Source of the DNA: an uncultured Gammaproteobacteria bacterium
GTDB lineage: Bacteria > Patescibacteriota > Patescibacteriia > UBA2591 > UBA6264
Assembly (NCBI GenBank): GCA_964596735.1
Contig: CAZQVF010000002.1
Span: 82,321-146,320 of the forward strand
Length of the DNA: 64,000 nt
Direction of reading: 5' to 3'
Part shown: piece by piece, positions 3,393 through 64,000 of the stretch
Layout: every line of letters begins with the position of its first letter
How positions within the stretch are numbered: position 1 is the first letter of the stretch
Program-made: the position numbers and the translations under genes
The notes under the pieces: generated by a model
Told to the model about the DNA's origin: nothing
Database searches by the model: none
Seen by the model: the letters and a program-made list of their open reading frames with translations, nothing else

Positions 3393-4511
3393 TCATAATG
3401 ATATCATATCTTCATATTTTGTAAATGGTTGATGAGTGACTACACTCTCTACCAGGCCAATAGATATCAGGCTGATTAATAATGAGCTCCCTCCATAGCT
3501 AACAAAAGGTAGGGGCACCCCAACAACAGGAACCAGCCCAATATTCATGCCAATATTAATAAAGGCTTGGAAGAAAATAGAAAGGGTGGTTCCTAGAATT
3601 AAAATCAAACCAAAATTATCATAAACAGTCCGAGCCAATCTAATTAAACGATAAAAAAGACCGGCGTAAATACCCAAAAGAAGTAGACAGCCGATAAAAC
3701 CAAATTCTTCAGCTAAAACAGCAAAGATAAAATCTGTTTCTCCGGCTGGTAAAAACCTTAATTGCGATTGTGGGCCCAAACCAAAGCCCCTGCCGACAAC
3801 TTGACCTGAACCAACGGCCACAATTGACTGAGTAATTTGATAGCCGCGGTCTAAGGGATCTCCTTGTGGATTAATATAGGTTAAAATTCTGTCTTTTTGA
3901 TAATCTTGCAAAAAGAATAACCAAGATGAAGAGAATACCAGAATAAGAATGACTAACAAACTAATAAAATGTTTTTTATTCTTATCAACCAAAAAGAGGA
4001 TGCCAAACCAAAGAATAATAATCATTAGAGCCGAACCTAAATCTGGCTGACGAATAATCAAAAAGATTAAAGGCAAGATCAAGATAAAACTAATTAATAT
4101 GTGTTTAAGGCGGACTGGTAAACGAGCTTCTTGCCAGAATTTAGCTAATATAATAATGGCGGTCAATTTTGCTAACTCAGCTGGTTGAAAATTAAAAAAT
4201 CCAAGGCTTAACCATCCTTGAACTCCACGAAAAACCTGACCAAAGAATAGCACACCAATTAAAAGTAAAATTGTCAGAAGATAAATTATATAAGCAGAAG
4301 AGCGGACAAAACGAAAATCAGTTAAGAAAACAATTAAAAATAAAATAAGCCCAATCAGGGCAAAAATACATTGTTTAAAAAAATCACCAGTACTTTCTCC
4401 TTCAACAGCCAAAGACAAACTATACTGAATAACTAAACCAAAAACGATTAAAAGAACCGTTAAAATAAATAAAATTGCATCAAAGCGTTTTAATTGAACA
4501 AGATTAATCAT
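3393..4511 (-). CDS. ftsW: SEDS-family peptidoglycan glycosyltransferase (FtsW/RodA)
   Basis: Polytopic membrane protein with SEDS motifs (GFGLGPQSQLRFLPAGETDFIFAV, VPVVGVPLPFVSYGGSS). Confidence 0.85.
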   Translation of the reverse strand: MINLVQLKRFDAILFILTVLLIVFGLVIQYSLSLAVEGESTGDFFKQCIFALIGLILFLIVFLTDFRFVRSSAYIIYLLTILLLIGVLFFGQVFRGVQGWLSLGFFNFQPAELAKLTAIIILAKFWQEARLPVRLKHILISFILILPLIFLIIRQPDLGSALMIIILWFGILFLVDKNKKHFISLLVILILVFSSSWLFFLQDYQKDRILTYINPQGDPLDRGYQITQSIVAVGSGQVVGRGFGLGPQSQLRFLPAGETDFIFAVLAEEFGFIGCLLLLGIYAGLFYRLIRLARTVYDNFGLILILGTTLSIFFQAFINIGMNIGLVPVVGVPLPFVSYGGSSLLISLISIGLVESVVTHQPFTKYEDMISL

Positions 4512-4520
4512 TGGGTTGAT

Positions 4521-5405
4521 CTAATATGCTGGAATAAAAATTTCTGAATCAAAGGGATTAATATCAGGAACAATCTCAATATGACTATAAGAAGAGATTT
4601 TGGGCCAAATTAATTCTATTTGTCTTTGTTCATTGCCTTGCCAGTTTTTTACTGGAATAGTATTTATTCCGACAATCTTTGACTTCTGGTAAAGAATAAC
4701 TAATAAATTAACTTGCCAAAAACTATGAATTGATTCATTTTTTATTGAAAAAGAAACTTGTGGTAAGGCAATCATCTCTTCTTCAGAAATGGCATAACCT
4801 AATTCAATGTCTCCAAAGGTAAATTGTGATGGTATTTGAAGCAGTTGATCATTAGGGTCAATTCTTTTCCAGTCAACATTAGAAAGGATAAATTCTGCCT
4901 TGGTTAGTTTTCCACCCACTTCTTGTCCTAGGGCTGAAATATACTTTTCCGCTCCTGGTAAAATAAAGCCTTTTTGTATTTGTGTTTGTCCGTTTTCCCA
5001 GGAAAAATAATATTCAATTTCTTGGACAAACCATTCCTTGCTTGGATTTTTTACTTTGATAACAAAATCATATTTTGGTTCAGCTGAAGATAATCTAAGT
5101 AAAATAGGGTTTTCTAGGATTAGATTCTCGGGTTGAAAATGTTCATGCAATTTCAAATAGTCTATTTGTTCAGTAGTTAATTCTCTCAACCCTTGTTCAT
5201 GAGCCTCTTTTAAAGAAAAGTACTTGTATAATTGATAGCCGGCTATGCTCCAAACAACAATATTTAAAAGAATAACGACAATAAGCAAAAGGAGTTTAAG
5301 CTTTTTTTTATTGGCTAAATACCACTGGGCAAATCTAAGTTGTTTAGTGGTTAATTCTTCTGCCATAACGCCCCTTATTTTACCAAACATTATTTGAAGC
5401 GGCAA
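4521..5405 (-). CDS. Hypothetical N-terminally membrane-anchored protein
   Basis: Single predicted TM helix after a K-rich N-terminus; no recognisable catalytic motifs; directly downstream of ftsW. Confidence 0.5.
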   Translation of the reverse strand: MPLQIMFGKIRGVMAEELTTKQLRFAQWYLANKKKLKLLLLIVVILLNIVVWSIAGYQLYKYFSLKEAHEQGLRELTTEQIDYLKLHEHFQPENLILENPILLRLSSAEPKYDFVIKVKNPSKEWFVQEIEYYFSWENGQTQIQKGFILPGAEKYISALGQEVGGKLTKAEFILSNVDWKRIDPNDQLLQIPSQFTFGDIELGYAISEEEMIALPQVSFSIKNESIHSFWQVNLLVILYQKSKIVGINTIPVKNWQGNEQRQIELIWPKISSYSHIEIVPDINPFDSEIFIPAY

Positions 5406-43999: not shown

Positions 44000-44218
44000 T
44001 TATTTAATACGACCGACTTTTTTTAAAAAAGCCATTTTTTCTGCTCTTTTTTTTCTTTGGAGAGCACTTTCTTTTTTTAATTTTTGACTTTTCGGCTTAA
44101 TATAAAACTTACCTTTTTTATGTTGATTTATTACTCCGCTTCGCTTTACTTGTTCAGAAAATCTTCTTAAAAAAACATTTAAAGGTTCTCTTTGTTTTCT
44201 TTTAGCTTCTACGCTCAT
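44000..44218 (-). CDS. rpsU: 30S ribosomal protein S21
   Basis: Basic 72-aa protein with EPLNVFLRRFSEQVKRSGV...KRAEK, an S21-like pattern. Confidence 0.75.
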   Translation of the reverse strand: MSVEAKRKQREPLNVFLRRFSEQVKRSGVINQHKKGKFYIKPKSQKLKKESALQRKKRAEKMAFLKKVGRIK

Positions 44219-45063
44219 AAATTTAATAGTTTCTTAACCAAATTATCTAATTCTTTATCTTGATAAAGTTCGATTGTAACTTTAATCTTTTTATTTCTTT
44301 TAATAATTTTTACTTTTGTTCCTAAGGCCTCAGTTAAAGCTTTTTCTTTTTCTAAAAACTTTGGGTCCAGTTCAATATTTTTTCTTACTCGTTTCCCTGA
44401 CATTATCTTCTCTGTTTCCCTTACTGTTAGCCCTAATCCTAAAATTCTTTTTAATAAAGCCTTTCGTTTTTCTTCTGTGTCTACTGAAAGTAATGCTTTG
44501 GCATGCCCTTCGGTAATTCTTTCTTGAGCAATTGCTTTTTGAATTGACTCGGGCAAGGTTAAAAGCCGTAAAGTATTGGCAATACTGGCTCGAGCCTTCC
44601 CCATTTTTTGCCCTACTTGTTCCTGAGTTAAATTAAACTCTTCCATTAAACGATGATATCCCTTTGCCCTTTCCATGGGATTAAGATCTTTTCTCTGAAT
44701 ATTTTCTAAAAGAGAAATAGCTAGTTTTTCATTTGCTTCAATTGAGCGAACAAGGGAGGGAACAGTTGTCAGTTCTAAAACCTTAGCGGCCCGCCAACGC
44801 CTTTCTCCAGCAATTATTTGATATTGATCAGTGCCAATCTTGGTCAAAATTAATGGCTGAATAATTCCATGTTCTCGAATAGAATTAATCAACTCTTCTG
44901 TTTCTAAATGAGGAAAGTTTTCTCTTGGTTGTTCTGGATTAGATTGAATCTGATTAATTCTAATTTCTAAGACCTGCTCTCCTGTTTGTACTAAAACTTC
45001 CTCTGTGGCTTTTTTTATTGTTCTGGTTGGAATTAATGATCCCAAACCACGTCCTAATGGCAT
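44215..45063 (-). CDS. parB: Chromosome partitioning protein ParB
   Basis: ParB box GERRWRAA plus HTH region. It overlaps rpsU by 4 nt. Confidence 0.85.
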   Translation of the reverse strand: MPLGRGLGSLIPTRTIKKATEEVLVQTGEQVLEIRINQIQSNPEQPRENFPHLETEELINSIREHGIIQPLILTKIGTDQYQIIAGERRWRAAKVLELTTVPSLVRSIEANEKLAISLLENIQRKDLNPMERAKGYHRLMEEFNLTQEQVGQKMGKARASIANTLRLLTLPESIQKAIAQERITEGHAKALLSVDTEEKRKALLKRILGLGLTVRETEKIMSGKRVRKNIELDPKFLEKEKALTEALGTKVKIIKRNKKIKVTIELYQDKELDNLVKKLLNL

Positions 45064-45161
45064 CCCTCACCTTTCAGCGATGCATTTTAAATAAACACAT
45101 CGGTTAATTATTTAACTATCTGACTTTTATTTTCCCCTCATCTTACAGTAAATACACTTGT

Positions 45162-45965
45162 TTAAAAATGCGAAGCATTATCGCTGCAGGGTGAGGGATT
45201 ATTAAGTAAAAATTCTTTGGCTAACCTCTTATAAGCATGAGCTCCTTTTGATTTTGGAGCGTATTCTAAAATTGTCTGACCATAACTTGGAGCTTCGGCT
45301 AAACGAACATTGCGGGGAATAATAGTGCGAAAAATTTTATAAGGAAAATGTTTATACAATTCTTCCCAGACTTCAGCTGAGAGACGTCCTCGGCCATCAT
45401 ACATAGTTATCACCGCTCCTAAAATTCCTAAATTGGGTTGCAGGTTTTCTTTAATCAATTTAATTGTTTCTAAAAGCTGGCCCAATCCTTCTAAGGCATA
45501 GTATTCTGCCTGAACCGGGATTAAAACCTGGTCAGCCGCCACCAAACTGTTAACCGTAATTAAGCTTAATGAAGGTGGGGTGTCAATAAAGATATAATCA
45601 AAATTCTCCCCTGCTTTTTCGGCTAATATATCTTTAATTACCTTAGATAAAATAAACTCTCTTTCTGGAATATTCACTAATTCAATATCTGCTCCGGCTA
45701 AATTTTCATTAGCCGGAATAATCCAAAGATTTCGTCGCGTCGCCGTAATACTTGAATGCAAAGGAATTTTTTGGCTTAAAACTTCGTAAATTCCCTGGGA
45801 GCGGTCACCAATCCCTAAACCAGAACTGGCATTAGCCTGAGGATCTAAATCAATTAACAGGATTTTTTTACCTGAAGCAGAGAGATAAGCGGCTAAATTA
45901 ATTGCAACATTAGTCTTACCCGTTCCTCCTTTTCGATTACATATAACAATGACTTTTGGCTGCAT
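45162..45965 (-). CDS. parA: Chromosome partitioning ATPase ParA/Soj
   Basis: Deviant Walker A KGGTGKTN, DLDPQAN, IDTPPS. Confidence 0.9.
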   Translation of the reverse strand: MQPKVIVICNRKGGTGKTNVAINLAAYLSASGKKILLIDLDPQANASSGLGIGDRSQGIYEVLSQKIPLHSSITATRRNLWIIPANENLAGADIELVNIPEREFILSKVIKDILAEKAGENFDYIFIDTPPSLSLITVNSLVAADQVLIPVQAEYYALEGLGQLLETIKLIKENLQPNLGILGAVITMYDGRGRLSAEVWEELYKHFPYKIFRTIIPRNVRLAEAPSYGQTILEYAPKSKGAHAYKRLAKEFLLNNPSPCSDNASHF

Positions 45966-58686: not shown

Positions 58687-59871
58687 TTATTGATTAAAAT
58701 CAGAAAGAATCTGAATCAGGTTGTAAAACGAGTATTCCAAGGCGTCTGGTCTTGAGTAGTAGAACGGATCTGGCGCTATTTCGCCGGAATTTGATGTCTC
58801 AAGAGCCAGGGTAAGCGGCTTATCAAGTCCGTCACCAATCTTCAAAACATGTTGTAACATATTTTGAAACAAAGGAGTGAGCTTAATCGGAGCATGAGAA
58901 CCACAACGACGATGTTTGGCCAATTTCCACGCATAAGTATCATTCTTGAGAATAACTCGAAGCTCTCGATGATAATCCGTGTCTGTGTCTCTTGGATCAA
59001 GAACGATTACCTGCCATGGGTTATTTCCGTGCAAATGATAATAAGATGTGTTCAACTTGGAAGCCATTTCATTAAAACTGGCTCTTTGTTGAATTGTGCG
59101 CGGAACTTTTCCATTCTCAGCAGAAAAACCAAAGAACTTTTCAAACTCAGGGTTTGGTTGAGCAAACTCTAAATTTTCAATTTCTTCAATTTCTATGCAT
59201 TCTTGATTTAATGCCTGAACCGTACCTAGTAAATGATCAAAGTCCACCACACAGTCAACGTCTGCCTCTTTCATGATATTGAACAAATCCAGATAAATTC
59301 CTGAACGGTGAGATAAGCGAGTAATTGGAAGCCACGCATTGTGTTCAGGTATCCAACAGAAATTGTTCAAATACACTGTTTCTAGTCTTGGGTAAACATC
59401 TGCCTGTCGCATCTGTGAAAGCACTTTTATATGCCATCTCGCTCCGGCAAGCCATTCTTCTGGTTCAATTCGGCAATAAAATCTACGTTCGTTTATAAGG
59501 GCCTTTTGTTTCACAATGTTAGCCCCGTGAAAAACCAAACATTCTGGTGCTGGATCCCACTGAGAAACCGTATCAATCCATTGCCAGAATTCATTTACAA
59601 AACCCTGTTCTCCTTCTCTTTCACTATGATAGAGCTTGGTCAAACATTCATTTGGGAAATGGATGCTATATGGCAAACCATTTAATGATTTTGGGTTAAA
59701 GCTCTTTGAGAAAAGACCTGGTAGTCCTTTAAGCTCAAAGCCAAAACTGATTTCATATCCAGTAGACTTAGTTACTGCATTTTTAAACCATTTTTGGCGA
59801 CTGATATATTCAGGAATACTGTTTTGTGTCCGTACTCCTGCTGGGACAAAGATTCTAAGTTGTCTCTTCAT
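58687..59871 (-). CDS. Hypothetical 394-aa protein, compositionally atypical (GC-richer than surroundings)
   Basis: Long ORF with clearly higher G+C and different codon usage than neighbouring genes; Trp/His-rich; no motif I can assign. Confidence 0.5.
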   Translation of the reverse strand: MKRQLRIFVPAGVRTQNSIPEYISRQKWFKNAVTKSTGYEISFGFELKGLPGLFSKSFNPKSLNGLPYSIHFPNECLTKLYHSEREGEQGFVNEFWQWIDTVSQWDPAPECLVFHGANIVKQKALINERRFYCRIEPEEWLAGARWHIKVLSQMRQADVYPRLETVYLNNFCWIPEHNAWLPITRLSHRSGIYLDLFNIMKEADVDCVVDFDHLLGTVQALNQECIEIEEIENLEFAQPNPEFEKFFGFSAENGKVPRTIQQRASFNEMASKLNTSYYHLHGNNPWQVIVLDPRDTDTDYHRELRVILKNDTYAWKLAKHRRCGSHAPIKLTPLFQNMLQHVLKIGDGLDKPLTLALETSNSGEIAPDPFYYSRPDALEYSFYNLIQILSDFNQ

Positions 59872-61236: not shown

Positions 61237-61345
61237 AAAATTTTTCACCCCTTCAACTTTTCCATATCTACGAAAATAAAATGAGGGTTACTCTTCATGG
61301 GTTATTTCTAAGCCTGCTTTAATTATAGCGGGTTTTTGTGTTTCC

Positions 61346-61405
61346 TTAACCCAAAAAGCGAGGATTAACTTCGCTTTTTAGTCAAAAACTCCCTTGGTGG
61401 GACGC
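61346..61405 (+). repeat. Direct repeat R1 flanking the TA cassette (contains a 9-bp perfect hairpin)
   Basis: ttaacccAAAAAGCGAggattaacTTCGCTTTTTagtcaaaaactcccttggtgggacgc; 53/60 identical to R2. Confidence 0.8.
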
Positions 61406-61462
61406 TTTTCGAGCTTTTAAGTGGATTAACTGATAATTTGAACTTAAAACTTTATTAATCTA

Positions 61463-61723
61463 TTAATAAATGTCGTGTTTGCCGATAGAATAAAATCTAA
61501 CCACATTTTTCTTTTTATCTACAAAATCAAAAATAATTCTATATTCATAATTTATAGAAAATACCAGAAAACTACTCAACTTGCCATGAAGTTTATGCGT
61601 TTTTAACCTTGAATCCGATGGATTTTTGCGAAAAACTTTTTCTTTCTCCTCAGCCAAATCTTTCACTTTTATTGGCAGCTTTTTGTACTGCTTTGCAAAT
61701 TTAGGCAAATACAATATTTTCAT
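61463..61723 (-). CDS. Type II toxin, RelE/ParE family
   Basis: LKTHKLHGKLSSFLVFSINYEYRIIFDF...VVRFYSIGKHDIY fits the RelE/ParE C-terminal pattern (G.L...YE.RIGDYRIIY...IGHR.DVY). Confidence 0.75.
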   Translation of the reverse strand: MKILYLPKFAKQYKKLPIKVKDLAEEKEKVFRKNPSDSRLKTHKLHGKLSSFLVFSINYEYRIIFDFVDKKKNVVRFYSIGKHDIY

Positions 61724-61731
61724 GAATCAAT

Positions 61732-61947
61732 TTATCGTAAATCCTTCAAAGATTTTAACACTTTTCCTTTGCCGGCCTCAAACTTTAAACGATCTTTCTT
61801 TAGTTCTTCTGCTAACTTATTAGTATTCCATTCACGAATAAGATAACGAAAAAATTCGCTAACAGAAGCATATCCTTCTGCTTTAACCTCTTTTTTTATT
61901 ACCTTTACCATTTTTTCAGGTAAAGAGATGTTAACAATGTTACGCAT
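61732..61947 (-). CDS. Ribbon-helix-helix antitoxin (ParD/CopG-like)
   Basis: VNISLPEKMVKVIKKEVKAEGYASVSEFFRYLIREW is an RHH fold. It lies 8 nt upstream of the toxin gene. Confidence 0.7.
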   Translation of the reverse strand: MRNIVNISLPEKMVKVIKKEVKAEGYASVSEFFRYLIREWNTNKLAEELKKDRLKFEAGKGKVLKSLKDLR

Positions 61948-62045
61948 ATAATTATGTATTAATTGTAATAATCTGTAATAATTTATATTACATATATTAA
62001 CATGGATAATAATAACGTCAATTATAAAACTGTGGATAACCTAAT

Positions 62046-62104
62046 TAACTAAAAAAGCGAGGTTTAACTTCGCTTTTTAGTCAAAAACTCCCCAGGTGGA
62101 ATGC
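62046..62104 (+). repeat. Direct repeat R2 flanking the TA cassette
   Basis: ttaactaAAAAAGCGAggtttaacTTCGCTTTTTagtcaaaaactccccaggtggaatgc. Confidence 0.8.
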
Positions 62105-62246
62105 CTGCCCGCCGACATGGAGGGATGTTAGAACTTAATATAGTTAGATGACAAGAGGACGGGTTTTAAAATGATAATTGATGTTATCTTGCAAAAAGTC
62201 TATAATTAAAATGGACCTGCCTAATTTTTTAATAAAAGGTATTTAA

Positions 62247-64000
62247 ATGAAATCCAACAAAACATTTTACGGCATATTCTTAATATCATTAGCCGCCTTA
62301 TCATTGGAAATAAGCCTGATTAGGTTTTTTTCAATATCCCAGTGGTATCATTTTGCATTTATGATTGTTAGCATCGCTTTATTTGGTCTGGCCGCCTCTG
62401 GAACTTTTCTAACAATTAAAAAATTAAATAATCCGCTGTTTATTTCATCGATATTGTTCTCTTTATCTGTGTTAATTGGTTTTTTTATAACAAATAATTT
62501 AATTTTTGATCCTTTTAAAGCAGTTTTGGATTTTAAACATATATTTATTTTGCTGATTTACTATATTTTTCTTGGCCTGCCGTTCTTCTTTTTCGGAATT
62601 ATAATTGCCCATTCTTTTTTAAAATTTCAAAAAAGAGCCGGGAAAATTTATTTCTACAATATGTCTGGTTCGGCTTTTGGCACATTAGCTTCGCTGTTTT
62701 TCATGTCGTACTTTAACATAAAAACCATATTCATAATTTCCTTAATTGGCTTTATTTCCGCGCTATTTTTTGTTGATAAAAAAAAGAAAAAAATAATCTT
62801 TTTACTTTTTTTAATTCTTATAAATTTGTTATTATTTTTCACTCCATTAGAAATAAATATTTCAAAATACAAAGAATTAAATCAGGCGTTAAATGTTCCA
62901 GGATCTAAATTAATAAACACAGAATATAATTCATTTTCAAGAGTTGATATTATTAAGAGTTCTTTTATAAGATATGCGCCTGGTCTAAGTCCTGCTTTTA
63001 AAGGAAATTTACCAGAGCAGATTGGCATCACCATTGACGCCGGCAATATGAACGCAATCACAAAACACGAAAATCTTGATTTTATTAATAACCTGCCTTC
63101 GGCCATTCCATATTTTTTAAGCCAAAACAAAAAAACATTGATAATAAATTCTGGCGCTGGTTTGGACGTCTTAGCGGCACTAAAAAACAAGGCCATTGTA
63201 ACGGCTTTGGAAACAAATCCGGTTGTTATTGATTTATTAAAAAATGAATACTCAGACTATTCAGGAAATATTTACAACCGGGCAGACATAATTTTTGGAC
63301 AGGGCAGAAGCTTTACTAAGCATAATAAAGAAAAATTTGATATTATTGTTGTTTCTTTAGCCGGCAATGTTTTGAGTACCAGCGGAATTTCAGGTTTAAA
63401 TGAAAATTACTTACTAACGAAACAAGCATTTGAGGACTACTATGATGATTTAAATGATGATGGATTTTTAATAATAACGGATTGGCTAGTTTTTCCACCA
63501 AGAAAAAGTTTAAGATTGTTTTCTTTGTCCTTAGAAATTGATAAAGAGGCAAAAAAAACTGCGCTTTTTAGGACCTGGACTACGGTTACGTTACTTTTAT
63601 CAAAAAAGGATTTGGATCAAAATACTATTGAAAAAATAAAGGATTTTACTGAAGAAAATAAATTTGACATTATTTACCTGCCGACAGGTTTTGTTCCGAA
63701 CAAGAATCTTAAATTTAAAAAACCTTTTTATTATAATTCTGTAAAAAATCTACTGGAAAACAAAAATGAGTTTTACAAAAATTATATTTTTGACGTTAGA
63801 GCGACAACAGATGATCGGCCATTTTATTCTAATTTTTTCAAAATCTCAAAAGTTAATGAGCTGCACAAAATAGTAGACAAATGGAATCCTTTTTTTGATC
63901 CCGGATTTTTATTATTTTTTATACTGGTACAGGCCTTGATTTCAGCCTTAATATTCATACTGCTGCCCATTAAACTCTTTAACAGAACAAGTAAAAAATT
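62247..64000 (+). CDS. Membrane-anchored polyamine aminopropyltransferase (spermidine synthase)-like protein, 3' truncated by window end
   Basis: Open from ATG 62247 to the window end. N-terminal multi-TM region followed by a class-I methyltransferase-like region (LIINSGAGLD, DIIVVSL, DGFLIIT) and another C-terminal TM. Not in the ORF track because no stop lies within the window. Confidence 0.55.
   Translation, partial: MKSNKTFYGIFLISLAALSLEISLIRFFSISQWYHFAFMIVSIALFGLAASGTFLTIKKLNNPLFISSILFSLSVLIGFFITNNLIFDPFKAVLDFKHIFILLIYYIFLGLPFFFFGIIIAHSFLKFQKRAGKIYFYNMSGSAFGTLASLFFMSYFNIKTIFIISLIGFISALFFVDKKKKKIIFLLFLILINLLLFFTPLEINISKYKELNQALNVPGSKLINTEYNSFSRVDIIKSSFIRYAPGLSPAFKGNLPEQIGITIDAGNMNAITKHENLDFINNLPSAIPYFLSQNKKTLIINSGAGLDVLAALKNKAIVTALETNPVVIDLLKNEYSDYSGNIYNRADIIFGQGRSFTKHNKEKFDIIVVSLAGNVLSTSGISGLNENYLLTKQAFEDYYDDLNDDGFLIITDWLVFPPRKSLRLFSLSLEIDKEAKKTALFRTWTTVTLLLSKKDLDQNTIEKIKDFTEENKFDIIYLPTGFVPNKNLKFKKPFYYNSVKNLLENKNEFYKNYIFDVRATTDDRPFYSNFFKISKVNELHKIVDKWNPFFDPGFLLFFILVQALISALIFILLPIKLFNRTSKK

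Follow-up and report, generated by a model that had tools for sequence, protein, structure and literature searches.

Structured direct repeats bound a removable RelE/RHH toxin-antitoxin cassette in a variable gene array of an uncultured Patescibacteria bacterium

Toxin-antitoxin (TA) cassettes are typical of chromosomal integrons, and small modules that often carry TA pairs are also known from Acinetobacter plasmids, where these pdif (Xer) modules are bounded by short recombination sites and are moved from replicon to replicon by a host recombinase that is encoded elsewhere. The pdif sites are 28-bp XerC/XerD sites that alternate in orientation and lie on plasmids. The Patescibacteria, or Candidate Phyla Radiation (CPR), have tiny genomes and are host-dependent, and the ways in which they acquire and shed genes are, to our knowledge, poorly understood. 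In the ssrA islands of Dehalococcoides, units inserted in the T-loop lie in tandem, with the t(m)RNA 3' end directly repeated at their boundaries (PMC3146451). In the accretion of integrative and conjugative elements (ICE), integrative and mobilizable elements (IME), and cis-mobilizable elements (CIME), the integrase-less cis-mobilizable elements keep both att sites (PMC5704250). Here, we analyze a stretch of 64,000 nucleotides, hereafter the window (assembly GCA_964596735.1, contig CAZQVF010000002.1, positions 82,321 to 146,320 of the forward strand), from the chromosome of an uncultured Patescibacteria bacterium. Near its end, a RelE toxin gene and a ribbon-helix-helix (RHH) antitoxin gene lie between two direct repeats of 60 nt, R1 and R2. 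A comparison of strains largely supports the view that this TA pair and one repeat form a discrete cassette, a removable unit of a variable array. Coordinates are those of the window unless a contig is named.

R1 (61346-61405) and R2 (62045-62104) are identical at 53 of 60 positions (88%), and their starts are 699 bp apart. The first-pass annotation of this DNA had described them in the same way, as ~60-bp direct repeats ~700 bp apart with this identity, and placed R1 correctly and the start of R2 one base off, at 62046. They have a 41-nt core in common, AAAAAGCGAGG[A/T]TTAACTTCGCTTTTTAGTCAAAAACTCCC, in which the single difference is one loop base, and this core occurs exactly twice in the 64 kb, with zero occurrences expected from 100 shuffles. 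The only genes between the repeats are the antitoxin gene (61732..61947, minus strand, 71 aa) and the toxin gene (61463..61723, minus strand, 86 aa), as noted before, and the minus strand of the window was taken as the cassette orientation. On this coding strand, R1 reads GCGTCCCACCAAGGGAG-TTTTTGACT-hairpin-TTTTTGGGTTAA.

The TA pair is absent from the corresponding site, locus B, of a sister strain that is represented by four independent assemblies (L142 to L145) and is 95.9% identical in nucleotide sequence to the window genome over 3,069 bp. Here, the left flank of R1 is followed by one element, the right flank of R2, and the promoter of the gene for a 759-aa protein, and the sequence of this empty site is identical in all four assemblies. 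The terminator-like hairpin to the left of R1 (CCTGCTTTAATTATAGCGGG, 61310..61335, plus strand) is kept beside the single repeat. The unit of insertion or deletion is 699 bp long and consists of one repeat and the TA operon (61346..62044, minus strand), its register being arbitrary within the common core. The two things that the first-pass annotation had suggested looking for, the repeat without the TA pair and further copies of the repeat, are both present, and the cassette has a further copy as well. The window is identical, across the shared 12.5 kb, to the Joint Genome Institute (JGI) contig Ga0118720_1000011, which extends past the window end. There, the 759-aa membrane protein gene and a convergent methyltransferase gene are followed by a second RHH and RelE pair, TA_A, which is 92% identical to the pair of the window, TA_B, and lies 4 kb from it. 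The two pairs can be aligned from the upstream terminator element to the downstream one and diverge outside.

At a second site, locus A, it is the sister strain that has the additional unit: an element, a BrnT/BrnA pair, and another element stand there in place of the one element (E4) that separates TA_A from the methyltransferase gene in the window genome. The left side of E4 corresponds to the first of these two elements and its right side to the second, with the switch in the hairpin/TTTTTGGGTT region. The RelE fragment at locus A of the sister strain is 98.7% identical to the locus-B toxin of the window, and the short contigs L007 and L008 combine locus and allele in the same way, which means that one cassette allele sits at different element-bounded sites depending on the strain. 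Cassettes are thus gained or lost by recombination within an element, which leaves one copy behind, and of the earlier idea of a mobile cassette the discrete unit with its empty site and extra copies stands, and the likeness to integron attC sites, the -35 box in R2, and the integrase do not, as detailed below. In L007 and L008, a locus-A flank (peptidase M29) is joined to a TA_B-like allele, a population variant. A separate variant in one sample series concerns a flavodoxin gene (L003/L149, 8015-8490) that is split into ORFs (open reading frames) of 86 and 68 aa, probably by a frameshift or nonsense change.

The two repeats are members of a local family that numbers at least 11 full-length elements, and the array spans at least 13.5 kb. 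The JGI contig carries elements E1 to E6, located behind several genes; R2 is the core of E5 (62045..62104, minus strand), upstream of the TA promoter, and R1 is E6 (61346..61405, minus strand), downstream of the toxin gene. One more element precedes a Phd/YefM-type TA pair. The first-pass annotation had tied the repeat to this one TA pair, which turned out to be too narrow, as the family bounds many cargo genes. In the cassette orientation, the elements are built of modules: a T-loop-like box GTTYKAAC; CCAC..GGGAG with or without CCA; an A/T-flanked, terminator-type hairpin AAAGCGAGG-loop-CCTCGCTTTTT; and GGGTTRR. Some carry, in addition, one to three GC-rich tandem units of 20-21 nt. E5 has a left arm (62105..62136, minus strand) with a T-loop-like box and one GC-rich unit (AAGTTCTAACATCCCTCCATGTCGGCGGGCA), an arm that R1 does not have and that is present in E4 and in the elements of the sister strain. 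The GC-rich units (GCCTGCCCGCCCTT(T)GGCGTG) lie at 62105-62125 in the window, where there is one, and at 2376-2426 and 6592-6644 of L142, with two to three per site, in a genome of ~30% GC. The Logan assemblies break within these units.

A profile built from seven elements found full-length matches of 38-67 bits only in arrays of this clade, five in contig L148 and four in L142. R1 scored 67 bits over its full length (61403-61344, minus strand) and R2 61.8 bits; two weaker matches (14-18 bits) came from L163. In 129 control loci, the profile matched the hairpin part only, with at most 35 bits. The other 61 kb of the window hold no full or partial element copies and none of the element modules, and other terminators of the window genome have unrelated stems, which speaks against a REP/BIME-like genome-wide repeat or a generic terminator. 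The bare hairpin AAAGCGARG-N5-CCTCGYTTTTT is common: it has more than 118 single matches in unrelated genomes and phyla, none of them with the GGGAGTTT..CTAAAAAGCGA flank. A scan for GGGAG, a gap, and the hairpin in metagenome contigs, a collection that does not contain this organism, gave nine matches, all unrelated terminators. Viral contigs gave two unrelated bare-hairpin matches and none to the element arm or the toxin, and nothing matched in the plasmid and phage collections. The bare hairpin is thus a generic terminator-type sequence and the full 60-nt unit is not, so that the concern raised at the outset, a common genome-wide terminator motif, applies to the hairpin and not to the element. 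The R1/R2 stem carries a derived change (G.T/A.C) that other family members do not have. Since this change is common to R1 and R2 alone, they are each other's closest relatives and likely stem from a single event or from conversion of one by the other. A second, longer intergenic repeat of ~200 nt (..TGTCTCAT..GACCGACCTC..GGGAACGCTCTCTGGGCTTG..) separates cassettes repeatedly and in many cases has the T-loop-like box/GGAGCCA module at its end; it was seen at L163 1062-1360, 2022-2385, and 3597-4028, L162 723-1024, and L148 1668-1818.

Folding of R1 and R2 gave a hairpin with an 11-pair stem (9 Watson-Crick pairs, a G.T, and a G-C), a 5-nt loop, and A-run and T-run flanks, so the perfect 9-bp hairpin reported earlier is present and is extended by two pairs. 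In R1, these folds place A-run, stem, loop, stem, and T-run at 61353..61379 (unstranded). The stem has a G.T pair on the plus strand and an A.C mismatch on the coding strand. On both strands, the hairpin is accompanied by T5-6, with z-scores of -1.4 to -4.0; a simple terminator scan did not flag it. In appearance, the R1 hairpin is a bidirectional intrinsic terminator and probably serves as the terminator of the TA operon, a role that had been proposed before and that its position fits. The segment between R1 and the gene of a 92-aa protein (61237-61345) holds a promoter-like sequence GCTATAAT, a mini-ORF of 17 codons, and two terminators. Its GCTATAATTAAA motif also stands after the hairpin in elements of the sister strain. 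The segment may be what a lost cassette left behind, or it may be a promoter directed outward; an Rfam 'sraA' match to it is weak and at chance level.

The explanation that we favor, and that is probably right, is that modular elements are interspersed in a hypervariable gene array on the chromosome of this bacterium, and that recombination inside the common element core adds or removes the 699-bp RelE/RHH cassette, with the empty site keeping one element, as the strain comparison shows. The hairpins probably act as terminators that insulate each cassette, each of which would be transcribed from its own promoter. The elements may be attachment-type repeats as left by repeated integration at a tRNA gene, and the array would then have built up as very small units without an integrase accreted in tandem; we hold both steps with moderate confidence. 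A dedicated recombinase, if there is any, would act in trans, and the TA pairs plausibly stabilize the array against loss, in analogy with chromosomal integrons.

The link with tRNA genes comes from related contigs. In L157, a homologous TA unit lies directly after a tRNA-Asn gene, and in L165 directly after a tRNA-Asp gene and its terminator; the toxins of these relatives are 78-86% identical. In sister contigs of L157, the same TA junction reads ..GGGGAGCCA| beside unrelated non-tRNA sequence. In the Patescibacteria contig L091, which came to light through its match to the bare hairpin, a tRNA-Met gene is followed, after 8 nt, by the hairpin AAAAAAGCGAGGTAATTCCTCGCTTTTTTGGTTGGGG, of which stem, loop, and GGTTGGGG tail are those of the elements in the sister strain. 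Three more copies of this hairpin lie beside tRNA-3'-like fragments in L091, one of them with the GGTCAA..AAAACTCCCC tail of R1 and R2. A T-loop-like box was found upstream of 9 of 11 elements, against a background of 11.6%; these copies are related and one box is probably incidental. The possibility that the hairpin is a general tRNA terminator was rejected, as it follows a tRNA gene directly in only 4 of 129 control loci. We consider it slightly better than an even guess that the elements are remnants or mimics of a tRNA 3' end with its terminator. L091 also contains (4100-5000) an apparent tRNA gene that is split by an insertion of ~0.8 kb, with the 5' part near 4180 and the 3' part (..GGGTTCGAGTCCCGTCCCCGCA) near 4960. 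The insertion holds an ORF of 179 aa with no Pfam match and may be an intron with a homing-endonuclease-like gene.

Several observations weigh against the explanation that we favor. An integrase or recombinase was looked for among 20 ORFs of the window and in precomputed annotations of the array contigs, as the first-pass annotation had advised, and neither the ~78 kb around the array nor L091, L142, and L163 yielded an integrase, a resolvase, or a transposase. No circular or excised form of the cassette was observed. The comparison is compatible with both insertion and deletion at locus B, since the more distant homologues of the flanking gene lie in archaeal genomes without a comparable junction. 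Cargo boundaries do not always fall at the same motif, the CMAS block being an example. As to the tRNA origin, a sensitive Rfam scan of the array gave chance-level matches only, with no tRNA on the elements at E<=10, and no real tRNA gene is present in the 64-kb window or in L148 (~78 kb together), so that the array head has no visible tRNA. The tRNA-like region of the elements can be aligned to a tRNA only with an insertion of at least 5 nt, and the T-loop statistic counts related copies instead of independent events.

The most serious rival explanation, which we regard as somewhat unlikely, holds that the elements are similar terminators and nothing else, that RecA-dependent homologous recombination between them, or between resident copies and DNA acquired by competence, deletes, duplicates, or swaps the genes in between, and that the TA pair is a passive passenger. 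R1 and R2 contain a perfect stretch of 29 nt within their 41-nt near-identical core, which is enough for a precise deletion that would yield the observed empty site. The lack of a recombinase gene in ~78 kb agrees with this, and the two RelE copies appear to have exchanged alleles, as gene conversion typically does. Other observations speak for a site-specific enzyme acting in trans. Elements at different loci have exact matches of 11-19 nt only (E3/E5 11, E4/E6 19), which by the usual minimal homology lengths is marginal for RecA-dependent recombination. In the P0006 clade, at least three upstream contexts join the TA unit at ..GGAGCCA| with only 7-9 nt in common, and junctions to different cargo repeatedly fall at one position within the element.

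The 92% identical pair 4 kb away could also suggest that the locus arose by a single segmental duplication of the neighboring TA copy with its flanking terminators, the repeats having no role, since the alignment of the two copies runs from upstream terminator to downstream terminator. We consider this very unlikely: the empty site already holds a complete element at the junction, the left arm of the R2 element is that of the resident site and not that of the donor's upstream element, and the unrelated BrnT/BrnA cargo shows the same pattern of one versus two elements at another site.

We regard it as extremely unlikely that R1 and R2 are attC sites and that the array belongs to an integron or forms a CALIN, a cluster of attC sites without an integrase. 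The cargo genes of L163 are small, unrelated, and on one strand, TA cassettes are at home in integrons as mentioned above, and most elements have GTTRR just after the hairpin (GTTAAGG, GTTAATT, GTTGATG, GTTGGGA), which loosely recalls the R' core GTTRRRY. However, the attC architecture of R''-L''/L'-R' cores that had been proposed for comparison was matched neither in structure nor in cores. Single-stranded DNA folds of both strands of R1, R2, and longer elements gave only the perfect hairpin of 10-11 pairs with its 5-nt loop; R'' and R' do not pair, no bases are bulged, and the element is not closed by a long imperfect stem. There is no conserved RYYYAAC partner upstream, the cassettes have their own promoters, and no IntI-like gene or tyrosine recombinase was found in ~78 kb. 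A non-autonomous transposable element, either of IS200/IS605 type or a miniature inverted-repeat transposable element, with its transposase elsewhere, is almost certainly not the explanation: subterminal hairpins in direct orientation are present at both ends, as at the ends of the IS200/IS605 family, but the empty site keeps a full element and not a bare 4-5-nt target, terminal inverted repeats and a target-site duplication are both lacking, and ~78 kb contained no transposase.

To return to recombination within elements of an accreted array, its consequences differ with the enzyme involved. We put forward as a rather unlikely proposal that CPR chromosomes carry an undescribed cassette capture system that would be integron-like in working and differently built, with sites that mimic a tRNA 3' end and its terminator, a recombinase encoded elsewhere, cassettes that have their own promoters and are insulated in transcription, several TA pairs that hold the array in place, and intake of genes across domains, to which the block of DPANN-archaeal type described below points. 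If a dedicated recombinase does exist, a major uncultured lineage would have a new way of capturing genes, similar to that of integrons, and such arrays with their cargo could easily be traced in metagenomes by the sequence of the repeats. If homologous recombination alone is responsible, the locus would be a clear example of terminator-type repeats used as portable homology arms. In either case, sub-kilobase cassettes have been reciprocally gained or lost at defined repeats between strains that are ~96% identical.

The RelE/RHH pair itself shows nothing unusual and is classed as a type II TA system by family and operon layout. The toxin belongs to the RelE/StbE family (TIGR02385, 34.1 bits against a curated cutoff of 27.9) and matches PHROG 1213 (RelE-like) at 6e-9; matches to the Pfam families HigB, YafQ, and ParE stayed under their cutoffs. 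The antitoxin matches RHH_1 (E=2e-8, 34.3 bits against a cutoff of 20.5) and has weak ParD/CopG matches in the PDB. It lies upstream of the toxin gene on the same strand, with a gap of 8 nt between its end and the toxin start codon. A predicted TA promoter, TTGACG-16-TAATAT with a TG (61994..62021, minus strand), lies between R2 and the antitoxin gene, outside R2, and is kept in the second TA copy and in relatives. The TTGACT in R2 that had been proposed as a -35 box has no matching -10 box, and the same TTGACT occurs in R1, which has no gene behind it. The stretch from the -10 box to the start codon holds two tandem 10-nt repeats (61963..61982, minus strand; ATTATTACAR on the coding strand), which are conserved in TA_A and probably form the antitoxin operator. 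The pair thus resembles other type II RelE/ParE-RHH systems in a toxin above the RelE/StbE cutoff, an RHH gene upstream in the operon, and tandem operator-like repeats at the promoter. The family is very common in Patescibacteria: the toxin has 528 homologues, and every named one is from Patescibacteria.

Upstream of the promoter, at 62031..62040 (minus strand), lies a GTTATCCACA box that contains a perfect DnaA-box 9-mer. It holds the first base of the TA unit that is still conserved in distant relatives, and it is ~25-fold enriched compared to control loci (12 sites in 149 kb versus 3 in 961 kb), and it may serve in regulation throughout the clade. As a cassette boundary it was rejected, since it is enriched in the clade but also present at ordinary promoters. 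The box was seen just upstream of the promoters of RelE/RHH, BrnT/BrnA, and HigB-like pairs and of some ordinary genes: besides the site in the window (62031-62040, minus strand), at L148 9685 and 13821, L142 6504, and L163 1287 and 3937, and further at L155 1168 and 4793, L157 249 and 5680, and L165 9695.

The cargo of the clade arrays comprises RelE/RHH, Phd/YefM, BrnT/BrnA, HigB-like/helix-turn-helix (HTH), CMAS, MerR with DUF4325, and a gene for a 218-aa protein, and its neighbors differ between genomes; CMAS, MerR with DUF4325, and the 218-aa gene, for instance, have different neighbors in L148, L163, L157, and L142. Contig L163, from the same study as L142, carries on one strand Gp49 (HigB-like)/HTH, HIT, cupin, RHH/RelE, APH and nucleotidyltransferase, CMAS methyltransferase, and MerR and DUF4325 genes. 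Several of its spacers consist of GTTCGAAC..CCAC..GGAGAGCCA, then a terminator, and then the next promoter. In addition to RelE/RHH, three other TA types occur across the clade arrays: a Phd/YefM-like gene with a partner of 79 aa (L148 1133-1667, window genome), BrnT/BrnA (L142 5896-6448, sister strain), and Gp49 (HigB-like) with HTH (L163 1361-2021). For so short a region, TA pairs are unusually dense.

Exactly between two elements, E5 and E4, lies a block formed by the gene of the 759-aa membrane protein, which starts in the window (62247..64000, plus strand), and the convergent methyltransferase gene. The protein is spermidine-synthase-like, its partner is of PCMT type, and the block spans L148 10529-13614. 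Homologues that are 72-76% identical, with the same convergent partner, were found in L167, L168, and L169, which are labeled DPANN, Nanoarchaeota, or Woesearchaeota. In L168, they lie amid archaeal hallmark genes (tRNA-splicing endonuclease, XPG/FEN1, and Trm5/TYW2). The window, by contrast, is bacterial by gene content (RNase P class A, RF-1, FtsW, MiaA/B, and ParAB), and because of this difference in context the block looks like a cross-domain acquisition of the array, by transfer between CPR and DPANN.

Two further features of the window may be mentioned. An ORFan of 394 aa (58687-59871, minus strand) has a GC content of 40-43% amid ~30% GC and 17 relatives among 1.84 billion representatives, and it matched nothing in Pfam, NCBIfam, or PHROG. 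It was considered as a hidden recombinase and rejected, as it showed no family match and its structure model is of low confidence (pLDDT 57), with weak TIM-barrel matches (psicose epimerase and UVDE). ParA/ParB genes are located at 44215-45965, and because of these the region may lie near the replication origin.

A limited search of the literature on integrons, attC sites, TA systems, and tRNA islands in Patescibacteria/CPR found no description of such arrays, which by itself does not establish their novelty. In contrast to the pdif sites, the repeats here are direct, 60-170 nt long, chromosomal, and hairpin-containing, and no dif-like 11-6-11 site was seen. By function, the closest known system is the integron array with TA cassettes. 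With chromosomal integrons and CALINs, the array has in common small, unrelated, and often same-strand genes between structured repeats, a repeat at the 3' end of the unit, several TA cassettes, single units that are present or absent between strains, and apparent cross-domain cargo. It differs from those in that attC architecture is lacking, neither IntI nor attI was found, and each cassette brings its own promoter; its hairpins resemble ordinary intrinsic terminators. By structure, the closest are the tandem islands at t(m)RNA ends and CIMEs, which likewise consist of head-to-tail units bounded by direct repeats, some of them without integration genes, in strain-variable regions, and which likewise leave one repeat copy at the empty site, as seen here at locus B and locus A. 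The tandem t(m)RNA islands measure ~7-60 kb, whereas the units here measure 0.7-3 kb. In addition, no unit seen here has an integrase, the repeat runs through the terminator hairpin, no intact tRNA was seen at the array head, the resemblance to tRNA is partial, and the host is a CPR bacterium. Taken together, the locus is best described as tRNA-end-type repeats that bound tandem mini-cassettes.

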